Shown piece by piece: positions 396 to 64,000 of a DNA stretch of 64,000 nt. The position numbers were made by a program, and so were the translations under genes. The stretch covers positions 118,978,001-119,042,000 of the forward strand of contig NW_024704742.1 of assembly GCF_018977255.1 (NCBI RefSeq), in the 5' to 3' direction. Each line of letters starts with the position of its first letter. Position 1 is the first letter of the stretch. The DNA comes from Callorhinchus milii (lineage: Eukaryota). The notes beneath the pieces were generated by a model. The model did no database searches and was not told the DNA's origin. It saw only the letters and a list, made by a program, of their open reading frames with translations.

Positions 396-7156
<6,761 letters not shown>

Positions 7157-7194
7157 CACTGCCGGCCGCCAGGCAACCAGCGGCGCCGCTTCCG

Positions 7195-7260
7195 CTCAGC
7201 GTCACTTCCTGTCCCCCCCCCGCGGAGTCACGTGGCGAACCCAGCCCCGCCCCTAGCAAC
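7195..7260 (-). promoter_or_regulatory. CDK7 CpG-island core promoter
   Basis: Just upstream of the ATG: ETS-like cacttcctgt, USF-type E-box gtcacgtgg, GC box gccccgccc, X-box-like cctagcaac. Confidence 0.7.
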
Positions 7261-44500: not shown

Positions 44501-47500
44501 AGTCACTCGTAAGGTGGCACAAGCATTTCTGGAAGCTGATGGTGAGTTTGTACATTTAAAAAAAAAAGTGTGAGATTCATGAATGGGGATGATTCACTAG
44601 TGCAAATGTTTCATTCAGAAAGGATGAAATCTTGTTATACTATAATAATAAAATCCTTGCTTCTGATATGCCTTGACATGTCGTTGACCTGGCTCAAAGC
44701 GATTTACTTGATTTAGTGTAGCGTGTATGACTTTTGCAGGTGAATTGACAGCCATTTATGCACAATGATATCCACAAACAGCCATGAATAAATGATCAAT
44801 TTTATCTGGGGGATTGTTATCCAGGACACTGGCACAATCTCCTTTCTCTTTTTGAGTAATGCCATGGGATCTTAAACCGGCAGACAAAACCTCGGTTTAA
44901 CATCTCATCCAAAGGACAGCACTTCTGATAATGCAACATGCTCCCAGGAATGTATTGGAGTGTCAACCTAGAATATGTGTTCAAAGTCCTAACGTGTGGC
45001 TTGAAATCCACAAATCTTCTGACTCAGAGATGAATACTACCAACTGTACACTATTAATAATAGAAAATCTCAAAATCTGAAACGACAGTTAATCATTTTA
45101 ACCATCATTTTCCATTTCCATGGATAAAATCCAAGACTTGGCCATTTACTCCAATAGCTTCCAGCTACTTTATGATCTAATTTCATGTGATTGACATGAC
45201 AGTATCTTGATTCCTCAAATATCTGTGGTGTTCTTAATTCTGCATTAAAGATTCATGCAGTGCATTAAGGTCTACAAGTCAGTGTTTTTATCACAAGTAC
45301 AACACGGTGAAATTACTGTACCATGTCCCCCGGAGACGCCGTATAATGCCTTGTGTGATGTAGTTACACCTCCTCAGCTTCGGTGACTGGCTGAATCATG
45401 CCTCTCTCAGTAACGTTAGTCACGGGTGCACATGCTCAGATGTATTGTAGAGGCCTCTGGTCTGGATTGCACTGGGGCCTCTCGCCCTATTCTGTCACAG
45501 GATTGAGCAGGAGGTCTCTGCAATTGTAAGTCCCATCTTATAGGACGAGTTATCCGAAGTAAGTACTTGCAAGAATTTCTAGAATGAGACTTGTTACGTG
45601 TTAAGTGGAGTGACCAGGAAAGTGGAGTCCCTTATTAATATTTTGCATGGGAAGCAGATGCTGATATAGACAGCTTGGCTACTTTAGTAGTGACAAGTTA
45701 AACCTGGGACTTCTTATCGGGAGTTTAATGTAGTTCTATTAAAACTTTACAACCTCATACAATGAATGGCCAGAAAAGGCATCAGTGCCCCCTAATGACA
45801 GGAAATTCTTACTGCAACTAGTTTATTATTATGATGATGATGATTTCCAATGGTAAGAATTTCCTGTCAGTGGGGGGCACTGATGCATTTGGTGTAGTAA
45901 TAATAATCCTTGCTTGTGCCTTTCATGTCCTGAAGCCATCTCAAAGTGCTTCATAAGATTTCACAGAAATGTGCAGTGACTGTATCTTGTAGGCAAACGT
46001 GGCAGCCAATTTATGCATAGCAATGTCCCACAAACGGCCATGAAATGAATGATCTTTAATGTCCACCTGAACAGGCAGGCGGCACCTCGGTTTAACGTGT
46101 TATCCGAAAGACCACACCTCCAACTGAGCCAGGCTGGTTTGTGTTAAATCTTAGTCTCAAAAGTGCTTTGTTGGATTTACTACGAAGCGTAGTGACTATA
46201 TTTGTAAGCAAATGTAGGAAACTATCAAGACTAGAATTTGAACTTGATTTGTTAAGGTTGCTATCACGATAACTTACTGAATGGCACTTTGAAGGACATA
46301 TTTCTCTGGCGTCAGCCTGAAGTGTTCAAATATTTTACTGGCATATACAATTTTTAATTGACAGGATGACATCCAGAGGAACTTTGAAACATCCTTGCAC
46401 CGAGCTCATGTGACCTATATTCTGTACGTAATGATGTACATTGCTGGAATAGGAATGTTGCTTTACTACCTGGTGGACAACATGATTAAGAAAAGCAGAC
46501 TTACTCCAAAGAGAACCAAAATCTGGTACGTCTTATTCTCTTGATTTATAAAGGTGACATACAGATAAACTGCAGTTTATAGCATGACTATACTGTGGAC
46601 TCGTGCTACACTGGAAATGCTAATATTTCCAACTACACAACCTGCAGAAAGTGACATCAGTGACACAGGTGGATGTAAAAGGACTGCCCTGCCATTGCTA
46701 TTTCAAAGACACCTACAGTCTTTCTACCAATTAACTTGGTTTATATGTCCTTCCAAATCAAAATGTCAAATTACACTAAAATCCTGTTAAGGTTCCTTTA
46801 ATACAGTTATAATACAGTTGTGCTTTTAAGGAGGAACAGCTGGATTCCTGCACACTTTCAATAACAAGATCCTTCCGGGTCATCAGGTTACTATTGCTGT
46901 TCCTTCCTGCACCGAGGAAGTGATGACGGCATTAACCTGATGACCAGGTTTTTAAAATACAAGGAGGTTTGTGCACATATGTCCAACCTGCATTGAAGTG
47001 ACATCAATGATGATCTGATGGCCAGGAAGCTGGCCGCTTTCTGCATAAGAGTGGGTATGAGAAGATCACAGGGATACAGAGGTGCTAGGGTGTGAAGGGA
47101 TGTATAGTTGAAGATGAGCAACAGCTAGAAGGGCAGTCCAGTCCTACCAAGTCTGGTACAATAGAGTTTTCCTTCTTGTGGAGTGGAGGTGGGGGGAGGG
47201 CAGGGTGCAGGGAAGAGAAGGTGAGCATTAGTATTGTACCTTATTACGTTTTGTTCTGCATATAGGGTGACTCTCTTGATGGTCACTTCAACCTGGACAT
47301 TTCTCATGATAAAGCTGCTGGTGGCTGCACATCACTTGGAACGTGGAATTGAGGGCACCGTATACAGACTGATAGAGGAACTGGTACAGTATTTACTGTT
47401 CCTTATAGTTGCTTTATGATCTTTTCAACACAATGTATATTTGGCGCTAGCTACAAACAGTCAGGTTTGCAATGGAACTCTTTATAAATGTATACATTTT

Positions 47501-49974: not shown

Positions 49975-50340
49975 GAGTGCCAGTTTAAACTATGGGTTCA
50001 AAATCCTGATGTGAATCTTCTAACCTGGGGCCAAGCTTACAGTTCTGGCCTCCTTTCCTTCATTTATGCGATTGACCAGACAAGTCTATCACAGCTGTTT
50101 TGGCTCACACTGCAATCCATTTCTGAGGAATACTGCATTGTCAAGTGCAATCTTCTGGCTAACAATCCTCCAGATAAAATTGATCGTTCACTTCATTGCA
50201 GCTTGTGGAACTTTGCTCTGTGCAAGTCGGCTACTGCATTTGCTTAAATAATAGTTTCAACAACTTATTATTATAGAAAACTCATGATTCACTCAAACAT
50301 TTCCATGTTGTGGATACTATATAAAATGTAAGGACTATTA
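49975..50340 (+). mobile_element. Degraded DeuSINE-like element
   Basis: ggctcacactgcaatcc..ctgaggaatactgcattgtc..aacaatcc.ccagataaaattgatc. Confidence 0.55.
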
Positions 50341-51339
50341 TAAATAAATATGGCAGCTAGGAAGTTAACCAAAAAGCAGAAAAACTGAAACACATGAAAT
50401 AATTTCCCAACACATGGCCAACAATCCCTCAGCTTGTAATTGTCTTTTCTGTTTCAAATGTAAAGCTCTGAGTAATATCTGTGGAAAAAAAACTGTCAAT
50501 GGTGGATGTTTCTGGGGATTCTACTTCTAGTAATAATTGCAATATTAACATTTATTTGTGTTCTTGTTGGCTTTTGGTTATTTTAGTCTTGATTTTGTGC
50601 AATTCCCTTCATTTGATTAATCCATAGGTTTGAGTAATAATTCCAGTCATGTGACGGGAATTGGTATTATGTGGTTCAATTTTTCAGCCGTCACTGAAAA
50701 GATTTCTGATACTGAGCTGTGAAACACAGCCCACTACATGTAATGCTTGTAATTTGCCTTTTGGCTTATTAGTGTTGGATCCTTGGCATTATTGTGTTGC
50801 TGCTAACTACGCCTCACCAGGATCTCAGAATCAAAGAGCTTTCTCCAGCAGCTGCCTTTTCAAAACTGGACACCTAAGTAAGGACAAGTGCTGTGCATAC
50901 ACATACTGCACATTATACTACATCAAGCACTGTGGGACGCTACCCTACATGAGGGTCCGTTATATAAATACAAGTAGTTTTTATATTGTCTAAACATCCC
51001 ATAATTAAAGGAGTTGTAATGTCAGTACATTGCTATACAATTTACATTTTTATAGCACCTTTCATATGGGGAGGATATCTCAAAGCGCTTGGGCACCCGA
51101 GCTGTGGGTAGGAACCAAAGTGGGGGGGGAGCATAGGGAGAGGAAAAAGATGATAAAAAGCATAGTCAAAGAGGTACATCTTGAGTAAGATGAGTAAACA
51201 CCCACAATGCCTGTTTCATTTCTTAAATTTGTGCATACAGCATTCCCAATGATACAGCACAGCAAGTCTAAAATAAAAGCCCCAAGTGGAATGTGCTTTT
51301 TTTCTACCATAATTTCTAGGATCCTGTGACTCGTGGCAA

Positions 51340-51545
51340 AATATTAGGCAAATTTCTTTACTCCACACGCCTCTGTTTACCTAGCAATAAGTAGGAACCT
51401 GGTTATTAGTTGATTGGTGGATTGCTTTACCGGTGGCAATAATCCCTTCNAAAAAAAAGAATAATTTGTTCACTCAATCCACGACTGTTTGTGGGACATT
51501 GCTATACACAGTGATAAGGTGCTATATCGATTGCAAGGTTTATTA
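51340..51545 (+). mobile_element. tRNA-derived SINE fragment (long)
   Basis: ttactccacacgcctctgtttacctagc..cactcaatccacgactgtttgtggg; contains one N at 51450. Confidence 0.85.
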
Positions 51546-51880
51546 TAAGCCGAGAAACTATTTCTTAAAACAGGAGCTGGAATGACCATAGCTATCGAAA
51601 TCCTGAAGTGCTAAATGTTATTCCTGTGTTGCGTTTGTCACACAAGGGTTCATGTTAACAAACTAGAATTTAGTGTGTCTGTCATTGTCGTCTGAATCTT
51701 CATTTGGATCAGTTTAAGACTTTTCTTAAATTACCAGTTTGCACATTGGACGTGACAAGGTTACAGCGGATAAACACCTTCAATCATGCGTACAACAACA
51801 GCAACTTGCATTTATATAGCATCTTTCTCCAGATTCGACGTCTCAGAGCAGTTGAATGCAGTTGTACTGCATTTCTCGAG

Positions 51881-54800
51881 TTACTTCCCCTCACAGAAGG
51901 TGAGCAGCAGGCTGGTCTGCCCAGTGGTACTTTGCCACAGGGGTAGCATATTCACATTGTAACCAGGACACTTGACTGACATATTACATCTCCAGCTTTC
52001 CAGCTTTCTAATCACTCGCTGGAGCTCACGGTTGAGTTTTTGCAGTGCCTGGTTTTCCAGTGTGGTCATGTTACACGCTCTCACAATCGTGTCTCTCTCC
52101 CGACTCACACAAGCCAATTCTTCTTCAAGTTCTTTGATTCTGAAATGGATCAACAATATTTTTAGCAATTCAATTTTTTTTGTAGAACCAGTGGCAGTTG
52201 TGAATAAAAAAAAAGTTAAATCACTATTTTATCTTTTACTTTTCCTTCTCCTTTTCTGCCAAGAAACACTTATTACCCCCACAAGAAATGGGACACAGCT
52301 GCAGAGCTCTGCTATGTAGCTCAGAAAGCATCCGGGAGCTGCTATAGATATAACAGCTCAGGTTATGTTGCCCTCTGATTTCCCAAGTTAAACCTGTCAC
52401 AATAAAAACAAATCAGATATTATAGTGCCTTTCACATCGGGAGGACATCTCTAGGCGCTGGACAGTCAAGGATTTGGACCCGAGCAGGGGTTGGGATAAG
52501 GGGTGGAGGGTAGGGAGGTTAGGGGGTAGGAGGGTGGCTGAAGGCGCGATCAAAGAGGAGGGTCTTGAGACAGGTTCGGTTGAAAAATGTCAATTTGATT
52601 TCATCCTTCGACCCATTTGATCTCATCCTTCCATCTTACCGTCTTTCCCTTTAAAGCAACAAGGCTAAATTAGGCATCACCCACCCTTCCTGTAGCTCAG
52701 TGGTTAGAGCACTCGCTTTGCAAGCGAGAGACCGGAGTTCAATTCCAGGCAGGTCAGGGCGAAACCTTGGGCAAGTTTCCTTACTCCACACAGAGCCTAA
52801 TAATAATCCCTCCAAAAAAAAACAATAATATATTGGTCATTTTCAATCCACGACTGTCTGTGGGACATTGCTGTGCCAATTGGCTGCCGCGTTCGCCCAC
52901 AAATATACAGTCAATTCACTTTACAGTATATTCTGTGAAGCGCTTTGGGACATCCTCCCGACGTGAAAAGTGCTATATCAAATGCAAGGATTATTATTAT
53001 TATATTCTGTTATAGCAGTAGTGCGTCTTCATGACAAAAAATATAAATTCATCCTGTGGCCAACTGGAGAGACTGACACTTTCCCAGCATACGAGTCACA
53101 TTCAAACAAACATTTACTCAGCTTTTATATTTGAGAAACAATTTGTTTTCAGCATTACCTCTGTAAATATTCCTTCCTCATATGCTCCACTTTCCTTTGT
53201 AACTTCAGATTGTCTTCTTTTAGATTTTTTTGAACCTCCTTTGGAAGCAGGAAGACTTCTTTCAAGACTTCTTGTTTTATAACAGACAGCTGTCCTACAA
53301 AGCCAAAGATTGATAGACAACAGCTCACAGCTGTGAACATTTAAACCATCACTTTCAACTATTTAAATTGTTTGCTAACGGGCAGCTGTCCTACAAAGAA
53401 AAAGGTTAATGGACAACAGCTTACACTGTGAACATTTAAAATGGAGCTTTCAACTATTATTGGAAAAACAATACATTAAAAAAAACTTTAACAATGTTGC
53501 TTTATTTAAAATAGAAATTTACAGCAGAGATGAAGGCCATTCAACCATCACAAATTGACTGTTGTGTTTACCTACAAAATACAGTTACTACACTTTACAG
53601 TAAATCCTTTGAGGTGCTTTGAGATGTCCTCCTGACATGAAAGGGACGATATCAAATGCAAGGATTATTATTTTATTATCTTATCTGTGCTGAAAGAGCA
53701 AATACAGCTTTAAAATACAACTTTCAATTATTATCATAAAATCCATTCAGTCCTATTCACCTGCTTTCCCCACTCTGCAGAGTGTTCCACTTTAGATATC
53801 TATCTTGTTCTCTTTTGAAAGCTAATATGCATCTTGCAGCACCCAGAAGGACATTCCGCATCCTAGCACCTCTATGTGCAAAACAAATTCTCTTAATCTC
53901 CCCCTTTGGTCCCTTGCTAACTACTTTAAATTGATGCCACCTAGTCACTGACTCACTGACCAGTGGAAGTAACTTCTTCAACGAAAATCATATTTTTTGT
54001 AATGTGTTTGTACTGACACAGCCACGGGAGGAAGAATTTATTGGCAATTCTGAATGTTCAATGTTTTCTTAAAGCCCTTATTTTCTTTTACCTTCAGTGA
54101 TCGAGTTCTTTTCTGTATGCTTTGAAATCATTTTCGATATTGAATTCTTCCTTCCATACTACTCTTCACTTTTAATTTGCTCTTTTATAAATCGGCCATA
54201 TTACACTTCATTTCCTGACTGAGAAGCCCCAGTGGTGATCTGCTCTGAGACCACTCATTGCAATTAGTGAACTGGATGCCAGAACTGTGTAAGAAACTGA
54301 CTTGGCCTTTCGTTTCTAGTAAGAGACTTCTCCCAAGCAATCTAAATTCACTTTACAGTATATTCTGCGAAACGTTTTGAGACGTCTCAATGACATGATA
54401 AGGTGCTATATCAAATGCAAGGATTAATGTTATTAATAATAAATAAAATTAGAATCTCAGTGTGCTATGAATTATAGATAAGACCATTTATCATTACCAT
54501 TGATTGTACAGGCGATCATCTCAAGGTGCTTCACAGGATTTACTGTAAAGCGTAGTCACTGTGTATTTAGTAGGCAAAGGTGCAGTGAATTTGCCTATAA
54601 ATTCACATTAACTACGCATTACCATGAATCCTGTAAAGCTTTTTCAGGTGTGTCAGCAACATAAGGCACTAGATCAAATAGATTCAATGTGTGTTGTGCT
54701 GATAAACCTGCAAAGCCATCCACACTGAAATACAATGGAGTCCTGTAGCTCAGTGTTTAGAGCGCTCGCCTTGCAAGCGAAAAACCTGGGTTCGATTCCC

Positions 54801-57800
54801 AACAGGACAAAACCTTGGGCAAGTTTCCTTACTCCACACACCTGATGATAATCCCTCAAGAAAAAAACCCAATAATAATTTAGTCACTCAATCTATCCTG
54901 TGAAGCGCTTTGAGATGTCTAGAAGACGTGAAAAGTGCTATATCAAATGCAAGGATTATTATTACAATGGGAAAACATTAGTTGATCCAGATTCTGTAAA
55001 AATATTTTTTGCATTTGATATAGCACCTTGTAAGTCAGGGGGTTGTTACAAAGCGCTTTACAAGATCTACTGTAAAGTGTATTTTGTAAGTGAACGGAGC
55101 AGCCAATTTGCACACAAACAACCATGTAGTGAAAACATTGTATTATAAGCACTTTGGGATGTTGCAATATTTAAGGATATATAAAAATGAAAGTCTGTCT
55201 AATTAGGGAATATCCAAAAGTTGGAAAGTTTGGTTTATAATAATTATTGTAAAACTCAATTGCTGTTCATTCCTTATTTACCTGTAGATGTGCATTCCTT
55301 TTCTTCAATAGCTGCTTGAAGAGTCTGAGCAAGATACCAGTATCCAATCTCACCAAGAACATTGCAAAATGATTTGAACACACGGGAATCAGCATTTCTA
55401 ACAATTTCGAGAAGTTTGGCCACCTTTAGCTCAGCCAAGCCTTCCAACTGTATAAAATACAAGCAGATGCATCACCTTGCTTGAAACCTTCCAATACAAT
55501 GGATTTATTAAACTGTATATAATAACATAGTATTTAAATAGACCTTACATGTGATGTTGTGCCTTATGTCGTTGAAACGGTTCAAGGCACTTTACAAGAT
55601 TTACTGTAGAGGGAAGTGACAGTGTCTTTTTTAACCAAACACCACAGCCAATTGGTACCCAGCAATATCCCACAAACAGCCATGAAGTGAATGATCAATT
55701 TTATCTGGGGATTGTTTGCCAGCAGCACATTGGGAGAAACTTCTCCAAATAGTGGATCTTCGATATTCATCTGAACAGGCAGATGGGACCTTGGTTTAAC
55801 GTTTTATTATGCCTCTTTGATGACAGCAGCCTCAATAATATAGCTCTCCAGCAGCATTGCTTTGGAGTGTTAGCCTAGTGAGCGCAAATACATGACATAA
55901 GGCTTGAACTCACAACATTCTGACAGAGGCAAGGGTGCTACCAACTGAGCCAGGGTGATACACTGTTATCAGATATTCATTATCAAGCAAATCCACAGTT
56001 AAATATTCAAAGAAAATAAATCTCTGTGAATTTATTATTAGTCTAATGCTACATAAACAGAGGCAATGTAGACCGCGGTGGAATTTCTCCTCATAAATTC
56101 TAATTCTACTCTCCTGCTTAGTTTGTAGCAGAGATTTCCACATTTCAATCGACCTTTCTAACCCTGTAACTCTTTTTGTGATTGCTGTATTTTAAACATG
56201 TACCTGGAGCCAAAGAGACAAGGGAAATCCAATACTTAGCTGCTCTGTGTTAACTGATCTCCTGAATTCAGATTAATTGGCTACTCATTTCATTGTCGTT
56301 TACGGGATATTGCTAGCACTGATTAGGGACCTTATTTGTTTATACTGTATAATGTCATTCACTTTCATTTCCAATCAGTTTTAATTTGTAAAGCGCTTTG
56401 AGATTTATTTTTACCTGAAAGACATTATATAAATCCAAGTTATTATCTAGGAAAATGGTTGGGGGAGGTGAGAAGAACATCATTCATGTTATATCCCTCA
56501 GGCCAGGAAAGAAGACTTAATCTTAATCTGTCCTCCCAATTTAAAAGGCGTTATATCAAATGTAAGGATTATTATTAATAATAATTCAGCGTCTGTTAGT
56601 ACCTATAGAAACTATATGTAATCCATTAGAAGAAATGTGGTTAATGAATCCAGGAGTCTTCATGTTCCCACTGCATTGTATAAGAGATTTATCACAATTC
56701 CCTTCACAACAAGGTTCCAATCATGGCCGTGCCACCACAATGAGGGCCTAGCAGTTCCCTGTGCAGTAAAATCAGACACCAAACCACTAAGAACCCTCAT
56801 GCTGAGAAATTATGCCACATATCTCAGACACAATATGAAGAAAACATTTAAAAAGGGACAGAGGAAATCCAAAATGATCCTACCTCAATCTGTCCTATTT
56901 GATCCGTAGTCAAGACTCTCTTTTCTTTCAAACTCCGGTACAAGGGAGTTGACAATGAAAGCTTTTTGACGATGAAAGGGAAGTAGGACTCAATGACACT
57001 GGAGTGGAGGTTGGATGCAACTTCTCGTTTAGCAGTTTTTTCACCTAAATTCATCAGGGATAAACATAATTATTAATCCACAGTGACAGAAGTAATCATT
57101 TAATAATAAGAATAATCCTTGCATTTGATATAATGCCTTATTACATCATCGAGACACCTCAAAGCACTTCACAGGATTTACTGTAAAGTGTATTGACTGT
57201 ATATTTTATAGATGAACTTAGATTTTACTTCAATTCAACAAGTGAGACAACTCACATCAATAACAAATATCCTTGATCTGGCATGTACATCGTCAAATGT
57301 AAACCAGGGATCCCAAATTACATATTGGGGTTCAAAGTCCTCTTATTCGGAGAATGGAGATCTAATACTGACTGCAAATATATCCAACATCAATAATATA
57401 CATTAATAAATCAATACCTTTGAATACCGGCTTTCATGGTGTGAGAGTCGCAAAGCCCTTCACAAGCTGGGGGTGGGAGCCGGGGAGGAAGATGCAAAAG
57501 ATGACGAAAACATGGTCAAAGAGGTATGTTTTGAGATGTGCCTTCAAAGAGGGAAGTGAGAGAACAGGTCAGAGGGAGCCAGAATGGTATTCCAGAAAGA
57601 GGGGGCAGAATGGCTGAAATATCTCAAGTGGAGTAGAGCAATTACATTGCATGAGGGCTTCCTAGATGGTGGACTGTGATCTAGAACTGAACTACAATTT
57701 GTCACTTAATCCAGATTGTGTACATCATGACAACAACTGGAACAGGTCACCAGTGAAGGTGGTCAAGGCCAGGAAGCTGGATTCATTTAATAGTTTGGTG

Positions 57801-58717
57801 CTGTAATGAGAAGGTTAGAGGATAGGTATTCGTGAAGTATTACTATCAAATAACAATAATAATCCTTACATTTAATATAATGACTTTCGTGCCAGGAGGA
57901 CATCACAAAATATTTCACAGGATATATTATAATGTGTAACCACTGTGTATTTTGTAGGCAAATGCAGCAAAATTGGTCATTTACTTTGAGCCTGTTTGTG
58001 GCACATTGTTGAGCAATTTGGGCACAGCAATGTCCCACAAATAGCCGAAAAGTGAGTGACCAATTTTGGCCAGGACACCAGGAAAAACTCCCTTCACTTT
58101 TCGAATTGTGCATTTAATGTCCACCTGAACAAGCACAGAATCTGCCGTCCTTCAGGTTAATGTCTCATCTGAAGGACGGCACCTCCGACAATGTACACTC
58201 AGCACTGCATTGGAGTGTCAGCCAAGACTAAATCAGTTCAAAGCAGTATTTGTGGCTTGAACCCACAACCTTCTAACTTAGAGGCGAGAGTGCTAGCAAC
58301 CTGACACACAAATGAGCAAATAATCCAAAATAAAACTCCTGATGATTTCAGCAACATTAATGGGTGAGGTAAGTGGACTGACCTCTATGTAGAACTGTAC
58401 TTTCTAATACAATCTCAAACTTCTCAATTTCATTACATCATCTCGAAGGCTGCTGTGGATGTCAATTAATTCTATATTTAGCATCCCTGTAAGCATTTAG
58501 ATTGTGACATATTACAGCATTCGCAAAAAAACAGCAACTCTCAAAAATTTTACGATTACCATTCAATTGGACTCAGGGAGAGACTTTATGTCTCTAAGAC
58601 AGAGTGCAGAGCAATACTGCTTCCACAAAAGGCACATGAAATAGCATCACAATCCAGTAACTTACAAACAACTGGCTGCTCCTTAAAGGTTACTTTCTTT
58701 TTGAACGATCTCGACAT
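51881..58717 (-). CDS. Uncharacterised CARD/death-fold plus coiled-coil protein (257 aa)
   Basis: Exons 58717-58666, 57044-56884, 55447-55282, 53294-53159, 52139-51881 are GT-AG and phase-consistent (774 nt), with an in-frame TGA just upstream of the ATG. IESYFPFIVKKLSLSTPLYRSLKEKRVLTTDQIGQIE..KVAKLLEIV..VFKSFCNVLGEIGYWYLAQTL has the CARD pattern; heptad-rich C-terminal half. Confidence 0.72.
52688..53003 (+). mobile_element. tRNA-derived SINE, short subfamily
   Basis: A/B boxes, body and tail; very similar to 23927-24250. Confidence 0.92.
53750..53980 (-). mobile_element. Old CR1 3' fragment
   Basis: TRWHQFKV..KGEIKRICFAHR..FKREQDRYLK, a degenerate CR1 C-terminus. Confidence 0.6.
54737..54965 (+). 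mobile_element. tRNA-derived SINE, internally deleted
   Basis: Head ggagtcctgtagctcag and tail tatcaaatgcaagg(att)n. Confidence 0.88.
55545..55955 (-). mobile_element. DeuSINE (SacSINE1-like)
   Basis: gcaagggtgctaccaactgagcc head; ggagtgttagcc core. Confidence 0.72.
57855..58300 (-). mobile_element. DeuSINE (SacSINE1-like)
   Basis: gtctcatctgaaggacggcacctccgacaatg..cagcactgcattggagtgtcagcc. Confidence 0.78.
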
Positions 58718-60084
58718 CGCTCAAGTATATTCTTGGAATGAGTTGATTTTTTTCTTGTGAGAAGAGCAAAATTTTATTTATTTTATTTATGGTGGCTGAA
58801 TCTCCCAGTGCAGCTTGGCTAATGCTCCGCTGTGAATCTGCTGGCCTCTGGAACAACAGCAGCTCTGCAATCAGTCGGGTCCATCCACTTTGGCTCCCAA
58901 TATCAAGCGTCACCCTCACTCCAGGTTCCAGTTAACCTGTGTAGTGAACGTTTCTCTTTCTCTTTGTCAAAATAACAAAACGTGTTTCCACGCTGACCCC
59001 TGTAGTTGGGACTTGTATGTGTGGTTGCTAAGTAGCCTATGGGGGTTGCTTAGCACAGCTCTGCTCAAAACATTGAGACCAGGAACACAGAAACCTCAAA
59101 ACAAACAAGGAGCAATCCAAAGGACATCCATCCATCCACCCACCCCCCCTTTCACTGTCATTCTGAATGTCTCATACTATAGTTCCCAGTGGGTGAGTTT
59201 GGAGGAGAATGAAGAGGAGAGAGATGATTTGACTGCCTTATTTGGATATAGTAATAAAAGCAGCTACTGAACTTGCATAGAACTGTAGCTCACAAGAGGG
59301 GAACAAAATAAAATAGGTAGGGGAAGGAAAAAGGAGAGAAGAATAAGAACATAAGTGGGGTGGGGAGGGGGGTGGGGGTGGAGGAAACTTAAAAGAACTA
59401 AATCCCTCAACACCCTAAGGAAAGTAAGGTAGATATAGCTAGATTATGACTAATAATAATTCTTGCATTTGATATATTGCCTTATCATTTTGTTGAGACA
59501 TCTCAAAGTGCTTCACCAGCACCTATTGTAAAGTGCATTTTGCATAAAGTGCATGACTGTATTTTGTGGGCAAAAAAGGAGCCAATTGCGCACAGAAGTG
59601 TTTCATAAATAGCTGTGGATTGAGTGATCACATTTTTTTTCATTAGAGTTCATATTGAGAATTTTTCTGAGTATTGGGTTAAAGCCATTTAAAAGATTAG
59701 AACAAACAAGACTTGAAAAATCACAAGAGCAGCTTTTTTTAAAAAAAATCAAATAACTGATGATACTTCCACCCATTTCCAATGGAGCAATATTGCAATA
59801 CCACATTTTGGTCTTTTGACTAGATACTAAATAATTCAGTAAATATAAATTTGGACGAAGAAACCCCTTTAAATCTTATACTTCCAGAATCCCCACCTTA
59901 CCATATACTATCCATATCAATCAAGCTGAACATTCAAAGGCAATGATATTAAGCAGGTTAACAAATCCACTACTTGCAATTCATTCTCCAGTTACTGGTC
60001 TTCAAAATATAATTTGTCCAATGTTGAGAATATTCTAGACAGCTTGTCTGGTAAAGATTAAGAGAAGTTACTTTGGAGGAGGTA

Positions 60085-60412
60085 CTAATAATAATCATTG
60101 CATTTGATATAGCACTTTATCATGTCTATGAAACATCTCAAAAGCGCTTCACGGAATATACTGTAAAGTGAATTGACTGTATTTTGTTGGCAGAACACAG
60201 CAGCCAATTGCACACAACAATGTCCCACAAACAGTCGTGGATTGAGTGACCAAATAATTATTATTTTAAGGGATTATTAACCCCAGAAAGCGATCCGTCA
60301 ATTAAGTAACAACTGACTAACAATTGCCTAAGGTTTTGTGCTGCCCAGGAATCAAACCCGGGTCCCCTTGCTTGCGAGGCGAACCCTCTAACCAATATGC
60401 TACAGGACTCCA
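60085..60412 (-). mobile_element. tRNA-derived SINE
   Basis: Reverse-complement head gctacaggactcca and conserved body. Confidence 0.88.
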
Positions 60413-61231
60413 TTTTAGTATTAGTAGTAATGAATTAAAAATCGTCATTTCCCACCCCCTCCCCCAAGTCTGCACTCACCAACTTCAGGTTACTCAGAAC
60501 ACGAGCACACAAACAGACACCTGTAAGGAATTCAGAAAGCTGCACTGAAATGTAACTATTTTTCTGAACAAATTGAAATCCTGCAGTGCAGTTATTTTGA
60601 GCTCGTTACAAGTTTACTCACCTAAAAAATTAAATCGTGGGCTCAGAAAATGCTGTAGATAGGAAGATTTTGCACTTATTTGCATTTGAAATTAATATAC
60701 ACATTTAAAAATATATATATACTTGTATTTCATAGAGCGCTTTATCATGTCTTCAAGATATCTCAAAGTACTTCAGAGTATACTATAAAGTGAATTGACT
60801 GTATATTTTGTATATATGTATAGGTACAGCTGGTTTGAAGGGTCCAAATTTGACTATCCAGCACCTTGGGATGTCAGCTCGATATGTAAGGTACAAAACA
60901 AATGTAATTTTGTATTGTTTTAAAAATGAATTAGGCTATTCAGACCAGGCCATCATGTTTGTGCTGATGTTTCCTCCCCCATTAAAGCCGCTTATACAAT
61001 CGCCTGTGGTGACGTTATATTGATTTGAAACTGAATACTGTGGTTTGCAGTGAAACTATTGCACTTGACAAAGAAGAAACTCTTACTACTGGATCACAGG
61101 ATTCTCAGACACTATCCTGTGTGAAGGGCACCATATAAAAGCAAGTGATAAGATTTTTAAGATTATAAATTCTGACTTTTACAAAGCCATGGGCTACTGG
61201 CTTTCTTATCAGCCATCTTAATTTAAGGCAA

Positions 61232-62950: not shown

Positions 62951-64000
62951 TTAAGAAAATTGATGTTTCAAGTAGAGGAGGGATTGAGACAAGTTCAAGA
63001 TTGTGGGAGATGTCAGCTGAGAGATGGTGCTGATCCTCAATTGGTCGCTTCCAGCATATTTATGCTTAACACTCTGGATAAGTAAAGAAAAAACTATCAA
63101 CACAAGAGCAGAAGGGATTATACAATTGCATAGCATTACTGTCTGCTGAGAAATGTACTGCAAAAAAACAGTGCAAGAGATCTGACTTGTCAGATTTTCT
63201 GGATCATTTTAAGTTTATACTACACTTGACAGGCTGTTGGGATCAATTTATATAATCATCAAAAAATTAGCCCTGATTCTGCAAGTCAGTTTAGATTCTA
63301 ACAATTGCCTTTTCAATTCAGACCAAGTAGCTGTCATCAAAACTAAGATCATTTATTGTAATTGAAAGACAAGTGTCTGCTGTAGGAAGAAACCCATCAC
63401 CATGTTCAAATATCCAAACTAGACAGTTCTACATATGTATACCGCCTATGCACAAACTTCCTGGTCTAATGGAGTGTTGTTTCCCTGGAGGGATGCAACC
63501 CACTTATCCATTCCAGAAAGTAGTCAAGGTGTAGAGATCCCTGATGGTTGGTACTGCAAACTAGCTGAAGTAATATAGCTTGCTGATGCGTACCATCTGG
63601 AAAACTTCCTGCTGCTTGTCCAGCTAGGACCACTCTACCCATTCAAGCTTTGGATTGCAGGCTTAACAGGATCTGTGTGGCAAGAATTCCTACTTCCATT
63701 TACTGTACACAAAGTATTATAGGAAGGGCAGATGCATGGTTACTGTACCTCACATGAATTCAATCTTACCATGTGCTTAGTGATTCTATTATTGACCTGT
63801 ACAACATTCTTAGCCATGTGCTGCATCACTTGAACCAATTCATCTTCTTCATATCCCATGTAGTGTCGCAACAGTGGGGACTGGAAAGAATTGTAGATTC
63901 AGTCAACGTTTTCATTGCAAGAATTAGATCAATGCTTGTTAGTACAGACAAGAACTGGTATCAATCTATTTATATACTTACCCATTCTCCGCAACTTAAC
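62951..64000 (-). CDS. CCNB1: Cyclin B1 (B-type cyclin), last three exons; 5' part lies outside the window
   Basis: Exons ..64000-63982 (..GEW), 63880-63770 ([37 protein letters not shown]), 63073-62951 ([20 protein letters not shown]). Matches the cyclin B C-terminus; B1 rather than B2 is assigned from synteny with CENPH. Confidence 0.88.

Follow-up and report, generated by a model that had tools for sequence, protein, structure and literature searches.

Some proteins dock on protein phosphatase 1 (PP1) through a short motif of the RVxF type. RRP1B binds PP1 via 683-KVTF-686 (PMC9813921), and RepoMan and Ki-67 dock through RVTF and RVSF respectively, each with a downstream phi-phi pair, phosphorylation of the motif's x residue by Aurora B cutting PP1 binding 25-30-fold (PMC5005033). 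PP1 is also reported to act on caspase-2 during mitosis (PMC7290664) and to dephosphorylate the CARDs of RIG-I and MDA5 (PMC10807198), and phosphorylation of Thr125 inhibits caspase-9 (PMC11766951). Jawed vertebrates have four CARD-CC paralogues (CARD9, CARD10, CARD11 and CARD14), in which a CARD precedes a coiled coil, and the available part of the source mentions no short member (PMC5978004). In this work we have analysed a window of 64,000 nucleotides, by which we mean the whole stretch of DNA under study, from Callorhinchus milii (assembly GCF_018977255.1, contig NW_024704742.1, positions 118,978,001 to 119,042,000 of the forward strand). A minus-strand gene in this window encodes a small protein that joins a predicted PP1-docking motif to a CARD and a short predicted coiled coil. 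Our preferred reading, which we put forward tentatively, is that the protein may quite possibly be a PP1 targeting subunit whose caspase-9-like CARD aims the phosphatase at a CARD-bearing cell-death protein.

The N-terminal motif, which is the best-conserved segment of the protein and was overlooked in the preliminary description of this locus, carries the first part of the argument. For the comparison we used 37 orthologue rows, with a single row for each species except X. laevis, of which both copies were taken; isoform duplicates and aberrant models were excluded (P0002, P0007-P0010, P0023, P0024, P0049, P0070), and P0074 stands in for P0056. The pattern [KR][KR]V[TS]F was found near the N-terminus in 33 of these rows, while the models of the other four (Heterodontus, Hyla, Bombina and Rhinophrynus) start downstream or differently or are without a homologous first exon. 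V and F are invariant in all 33 motif rows and the two residues before them are always basic; 32 rows have T at x and one has S. Mean column conservation over residues 6-11 is 0.81, the highest value in the protein, whereas the CARD has 0.67, the coiled coil 0.62 and the stretches on either side of the motif 0.34 and 0.33. Conservation also extends beyond the motif, with E at F+2 in 22 rows, P at F+4 in 23 and a hydrophobic residue at F+6 in 26/33, at F+5 in 18 and at F+7 in 17, the pattern being weaker in sharks, rays and sturgeons. The strict pattern arose in 0.22% of 100,000 shuffles. We therefore regard the motif, which lies in a predicted disordered segment, as a predicted PP1-docking site of the RVxF type. 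It shares with RRP1B, RepoMan/CDCA2 and Ki-67 the form Basic-V-[TS]-F in a disordered segment, a putative hydrophobic pair downstream and a phosphorylatable x residue; unlike in those proteins, it is combined here with a CARD and a short predicted coiled coil, and docking is a prediction.

Could this N-terminus sit on PP1 in the way such motifs do? As the PP1 genes of C. milii are split by introns, we used as a stand-in a PP1 of animal type taken from a metagenome locus, which has 240/260 identities to the C. milii PP1 exon frames and is colinear with human PP1-alpha 1-300. Residues 1-32 modelled with this PP1 gave scores of 0.86, 0.86 and 0.85 against 0.01 for the best control, with a run agreement of at least 76% and a predicted local distance difference test (pLDDT) value of 56-57 for the partner. 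In calibration, the mark for such scores was reached by 51/78 solved and 2/108 mismatched microbial pairs, and by 71/105 solved and 2/126 unrelated eukaryotic pairs. In the model residues 7-12 contact PP1 at 168-169, 242-243, 261 and 288-293, and residues 15-16 lie on 293-295; residues 15-19 touch PP1, and the modelled surface also takes in 74 and 78, with an overall range of 288-297 in the last region. We take the contacted PP1 residues to be the RVxF groove and the phi-phi pocket. The model shows likeness, and supports PP1 binding rather than demonstrating it; judged together with the conservation of the motif, the protein probably docks on PP1.

The remainder of the protein consists of the two regions which the preliminary description had recognised, and both were borne out. 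It had placed a CARD-like region at about residues 30-115; Pfam CARD (PF00619) matches residues 43-115 with 31.7 bits where the cut-off is 23.9, and it is found at E<=0.01 in 31/33 orthologues. An AlphaFold2 model, built on an 18-row alignment (predicted template modelling score, pTM, 0.39), gives disorder over residues 1-27 (pLDDT<50), a six-helix fold over 27-125 (pLDDT mostly 84-92) and, after a linker, one 80-residue helix over 145-224 (pLDDT mostly 89-98), followed by a low-confidence beta hairpin at 232-255, where most orthologues have an alternating hydrophobic end in the alignment. Heptad a/d positions of the long helix are hydrophobic in 13/22 cases in the best register and 11/23 in the second, against 1-7 in the other five, so that the helix is predicted to be a coiled coil. 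A search for its coiled-coil family returned generic sub-threshold matches alone. On the CARD, the alignment points to a surface conserved within the family (K44, Y53, R54, T63, Q66, G68, E71 and E73). DLG5 is defined by its PDZ/MAGUK domains and CARD19 by a C-terminal membrane anchor; Pfam found no DLG5-type PDZ/MAGUK domain in 33 members, and the AlphaFold2 model contains no membrane helix of the CARD19 type. Pfam likewise gave no match to the Peptidase C14 catalytic domain in the C. milii protein or 32 orthologues, and no NB-ARC, PDZ, SH3 or GUK domain in the family.

To which CARDs is this one related? The preliminary description, in which the protein was seen as a minimal and possibly undescribed death-fold adaptor, implied kinship with the CARD9/10/11/14 scaffolds of BCL10. 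The small, uncharacterized and conserved CARD-coiled-coil protein is there, but the implied kinship was not supported. Neither the C. milii protein nor the family profile matched a CARD9 or CARD11 structure at E<=1, while half a CARD from C. milii CARD11, encoded by its first CARD exon, matched CARD9/CARD11 structures at 5e-29. Pfam scanning of the genome yielded at least 33 CARD matches; when the family CARD profile was applied to 160 frames taken from 30 of these loci the top score was 18.5 bits, and the caspase-9 half-exon scored 14.7 bits against at most 0.6 for four CARD11-type half-exons. The intron within the family CARD is of phase 0 and falls, in an ungapped register, exactly where the caspase-9 intron does. 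The alignment around it has 14/59 identities to caspase-9, and no shift other than 0 scores positive on either side of it. In the three CARD9/11-type genes that we inspected, presumably including CARD9 and CARD10/14, a phase-1 intron lies about 9 profile positions further on.

Trees and fold searches point the same way. Two trees were built over 94 columns, one with 37 rows and one with 29. The family, a paralogue from rays and two amphioxus proteins form one clade (95/97 with 37 rows, 99/97 with 29), with caspase-9 as its sister (93/86 and 96/86), so that the best trees set CARD9/11 apart. Against 48,161 chains the fold search VIA was led by caspase-9 CARDs (Z 15.4, root mean square deviation 1.9, 101 residues aligned; and Z 15.2), followed by Apaf-1 (13.9), MDA5 (13.2, tandem CARDs), CARD9 (11.1) and BCL10 (11.0). 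The Atlas structure search favoured caspase-2, and the Atlas feature search was led by CARD9 clusters at 0.86, under its bar of 0.9. On balance, the CARD belongs with those of the apoptosome type (caspase-9/Apaf-1), and the family is probably not a CARD9/11 member. It resembles the caspase-9 prodomain and the Apaf-1 CARD in its top structural matches, in the register and phase of the caspase-9 intron and in the sister position of caspase-9 in both trees; it differs in having neither a protease nor an NB-ARC domain, in an identity of 15-20% and in not keeping the caspase-9 arginines. With the CARD-CC proteins it shares the order of CARD and coiled coil, but it is of another CARD subtype by sequence, has another intron, and is only 257 residues long without PDZ, SH3 or GUK domains. 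CARD11 and CARD9-like genes were found elsewhere in the C. milii genome, apart from this gene, in agreement with the earlier statement that the long scaffolds lie at other loci.

Some observations on other CARDs of this genome may be recorded here. The NB-ARC exons of Apaf-1 (G000:C5:55003001-55033000) enter a long simple repeat and an N gap, with no CARD exon found upstream, and the assembly may lack the Apaf-1 CARD exon. An unassigned single-exon CARD at G000:C22:5623039-5623260 has its best PDB matches in caspase-9 (E 1e-4) and was placed weakly near caspase-9 and the CARD-coiled-coil family in one tree. Two identical CARD exons 19 kb apart (G000:C5:17056161 and 17075188), which we take to be BCL10-like, represent either a recent duplication or an assembly artefact.

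How might such a protein work? According to our preferred reading, the N-terminal [KR][KR]V[TS]F would dock on PP1 and the CARD would bring the phosphatase to caspase-9, Apaf-1 or caspase-2, while the coiled coil would dimerise the protein and so present two CARDs and two PP1 molecules. Phosphorylation of Thr10 by a mitotic kinase would release PP1 and serve as an off-switch. The family CARD itself may have originated from an initiator-caspase prodomain. That the partner is an apoptotic CARD protein is the step about which we have somewhat more doubt, although it is possible. A wider version of the reading is rather unlikely as a whole: the family, an early branch of the caspase-9 prodomain that was already there in amphioxus, would have acquired the PP1 motif in jawed vertebrates and specialised as a PP1 subunit guided by its CARD. 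This subunit would deliver the phosphatase to initiator caspases or the apoptosome, would be turned off in M phase via Thr10, and would have been lost separately in teleosts and amniotes.

A number of points weigh against this reading. Chance alone produces a loose RVxF in 34% of shuffles, and inside the first 30 residues in 4.4%, so that it is the conservation of the motif, and not its presence alone, that bears the argument; and the 33 motif rows are related, not independent. The motif is absent from the ray paralogue and the amphioxus relatives, and its basic run could act as a nuclear localisation signal. The score of the complex may reflect likeness to the many solved PP1-peptide complexes, peptides are a class outside the calibration of the tool, and the PP1 used was that of another animal. 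As for the CARD, a grouping with the two rows of CARD11 type survived the approximately unbiased (AU) test on the 29-row tree (p=0.177) and so stands beside the best trees. The trees leave out the CARDs of Apaf-1, caspase-2 and RAIDD because their exons could not be located; those of Apaf-1 and caspase-2 were sought in the C. milii genome and not found. Foldseek placed Apaf-1 first among natural proteins, with the natural CARDs tightly spaced between E 5e-4 and 7e-2. Lastly, arginines of caspase-9 just past the intron, part of the basic face that has a role in Apaf-1 binding, align to columns 76, 77 and 81, where the family has mostly P/A/S, E/D and A/S. Since these arginines are not kept, the family CARD is unlikely to be a simple mimic of caspase-9.

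This last point also serves the strongest alternative, in which the protein is a PP1 subunit whose CARD has a non-apoptotic role: self-assembly, contact with immune CARDs of the RIG-I/MDA5 type or, via the coiled coil, access to a germ-cell, ciliary or centrosomal structure. We consider this alternative rather unlikely. Motif conservation and the complex model serve it equally well, the basic face of caspase-9 is lost while the family has a conserved CARD surface of its own, and the tandem CARDs of MDA5 reached Z 13.2 in the fold search, RIG-I/MDA5 CARDs being PP1 substrates (PMC10807198). The intron, the trees and the top folds nevertheless favour the caspase-9/Apaf-1 group, and the coiled coil yielded just sub-threshold generic matches. 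Is the protein instead a catalytically dead caspase-prodomain decoy, which damps or scaffolds initiator-caspase activation, with the motif mainly a localisation signal and PP1 binding incidental? CARD-only proteins are a model for decoy action, and a caspase-9-like CARD without a protease domain would suit such a role, as would the amphioxus relatives and the ray paralogue, which retain CARD and coiled coil without the motif. However, a nuclear signal needs neither the invariant V and F nor the conserved downstream proline and hydrophobic pair, and the identity of the CARD to caspase-9 around the intron is low; we think this explanation improbable. Still less probable is that the protein acts as a minimal scaffold of the CARD9 kind, nucleating BCL10 filaments and NF-kB signalling. 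The order of domains, the CARD9 clusters of the Atlas feature search and the result of the AU test are in favour of this, and truncated CARD-CC proteins signal with CARD and coiled coil alone (PMC5978004). Against it stand the lack of any CARD9/11 match at E<=1 by sequence or profile, the near-zero scores of CARD11-type half-exons, the different place and phase of the CARD9/11-type intron, and a coiled coil of only about 80 residues. That the gene is a pseudogene or a spurious model is hardly credible and largely refuted by its intact open reading frame and splice sites, its single locus and orthologues 37-63% identical across jawed vertebrates, even if one of four splice junctions was seen among the contig pieces listed (at depth 3.4) and one X4 contig runs from exon 1 into intron 1. 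The gene is neither a pseudogene nor an orthologue of CARD9/11, and it is of neither the DLG5 nor the CARD19 type.

The family was traced by several searches. The single-sequence search gave 24 of 957 scored candidates and the length-limited profile search at least 44 of 7,999. Rows with a name come from sharks, rays, coelacanth, lungfish, bichir, sturgeon, paddlefish, bowfin, frogs and newts, and each bears the label uncharacterized or hypothetical. Orthologues are present in both Xenopus laevis and X. tropicalis, LOC105946425 and LOC108707279 being Xenopus members of the family. An exhaustive HMMER search with the single protein against 1.84 billion representatives returned 23 matches at E<=0.001, which added gar, the ray paralogue and the two amphioxus proteins, all of the same architecture. 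The 23 also include two unnamed multi-CARD proteins and four HEAT-repeat proteins, with P0041 and P0048 carrying no name; the HEAT-repeat matches were rejected as amphipathic-helix noise. The uncharacterized amphioxus proteins (P0046, P0051) and the ray paralogue (P0044) are like the CARD-coiled-coil family in size and architecture and differ in being without the N-terminal motif. No teleost or amniote row was named in the single-sequence, profile (among the matches listed) and HMMER searches. This is an absence from the search results and not proof of loss; two separate losses would account for it. In a chicken gene table SLC30A5 and CENPH lie 4.75 kb apart with no gene listed between them, although the same assembly is gapped and lists no CCNB1 either, as far as the available part of the source goes (PMC3621764).

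Two features of the cartilaginous fishes deserve separate mention. Isoforms of sharks and rays (P0003, P0006-P0008, P0011-P0013, P0015, P0016) carry an insert of 25-30 residues between CARD and coiled coil. The 25-residue extra exon had no match in C. milii intron 3, the best scores being no better than those of shuffles, and the insert was not found in the C. milii genome or in bony vertebrates. The ray paralogue (P0044, P0071) retains CARD and coiled coil without the N-terminal motif and, with its own sequence as query, was not found in the C. milii genome.

The gene structure (Table 1) agrees with the five-exon, 257-residue reading frame given in the preliminary description. Each of the four introns is bounded by GT..AG, and the coding sequence of 774 nt encodes 257 amino acids and ends in a stop. 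The translation is letter for letter XP_007890418.1, 'uncharacterized protein LOC103177861 [Callorhinchus milii]', which was retrieved with exon 2 alone as query as one protein, of 257 aa, among 22 candidates. The gene is thus already predicted in RefSeq, but unnamed. In a genome search it proved to be single-copy, the 5 matches being all its own exons. The putative acceptor directly before the ATG would, to judge from the sequence, imply an upstream non-coding exon.

Table 1. Features of the CARD-coiled-coil gene in the window (positions of the window; residues of the 257-residue protein)
Feature	Position	Strand	Basis or remark
Coding exon 1	58666..58717	-	ATG, residues 1-17, contains the RVxF-type motif; sequence and tblastn of shark/coelacanth orthologues
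[KR][KR]V[TS]F PP1-docking-type motif, residues 7-11	58685..58699	-	alignment, pLDDT, complex model
Proline and hydrophobic pair, residues 15-17, predicted second (phi-phi type) PP1 contact	58667..58675	-	alignment, complex model
Coding exon 2, first CARD half	56884..57044	-	spliced to exon 3 in X1 record 7
Coding exon 3, second CARD half; preceding phase-0 intron in caspase-9 register	55282..55447	-	
CARD, residues about 27-125, exons 2-3	55286..57018	-	Pfam, AlphaFold2 model, fold searches
Coding exon 4, linker and start of coiled coil	53159..53294	-	
Predicted coiled coil, residues 145-224, exons 4-5	51983..53241	-	model, heptad count
Coding exon 5, remaining coiled coil, tail, TAA stop	51881..52139	-	X1, X2 and X3 contigs cover exon 5 or the 3' end
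C-terminal tail, residues 232-255	51890..51961	-	low-confidence beta hairpin, pLDDT about 50-55
Pyrimidine tract and AG directly 5' of ATG, inferred splice acceptor	58718..58755	-	sequence only
AATAAA, candidate polyadenylation signal, about 340 nt past the stop	51539..51544	-	sequence

Transcripts were checked in four runs (X1-X4), which we presume to be RNA, mapped over 50000-60500. X1 record 7 links 55281-55447 and 56884-57042 without a mismatch, exactly at the junction of exons 2 and 3; of the spliced transcripts looked for, this junction was seen and the other three were not among the contig pieces listed. Contig depth over the gene is low (2-18), interspersed repeats dominating depth in the region, and X2 contigs extend down to 51606 on the 3' side. 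A stretch at 54040-54300 (minus strand, intron 3), single-copy, with coding-like texture and a GT donor, was considered as a further exon and rejected for its stops in all three frames; nor does it match the shark extra exon.

The position of the gene between CCNB1 and CENPH, as first described, was confirmed, although the adjoining cyclin is a divergent tandem copy; we do not count this position as functional evidence. The mapped exons of CENPH occupy 32534-25944 on the minus strand, and cyclin B1-like exons run from 63743 upward, also on the minus strand. The latter belong to a tandem pair of cyclin B1-like genes, found at 63743-64000 of the window and beyond it (G000:C1:119041743 to about 119055200, minus strand). 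The two are 70-78% alike in DNA where their exons correspond, and the one adjoining the CARD gene has diverged further from human cyclin B1 (E 1e-21 vs 7e-26). An intronless processed pseudogene of CENPH with stops lies at G000:C4:26374577-26375129, where seven CENPH exons of the window matched in order. At 6944-7195 of the window (minus strand) an apparent first exon, without a Pfam match, stands in a CpG-rich stretch, and from its peptide we take it to be that of CDK7. This fits the chicken gene order CDK7-MRPS36-CENPH (PMC3621764). A 60-aa frame with a hydrophobic stretch at 46362-46541 (plus strand) has a sub-threshold Glycophorin_A match (E 0.004), probably by chance.

Searches with six RefSeq LOC identifiers of the family and by topic found no paper on it in the searched literature, supplements excluded, and no paper there that joins a PP1 subunit or RVxF motif to guidance by a CARD or another death fold. 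The family is real and, in the searched literature, undescribed. What could it mean for the animals that have it? To our knowledge, it is unclear how PP1 is aimed at caspases, and the family is a concrete candidate for this task. It appears to be an undescribed chordate CARD family which work in mouse, human and zebrafish would miss, if the losses that we propose are real. The Xenopus orthologues put it within reach of egg-extract work, and if the wider version of our reading is true, the family would be the missing adaptor for the control of initiator caspases by PP1 in frog eggs.

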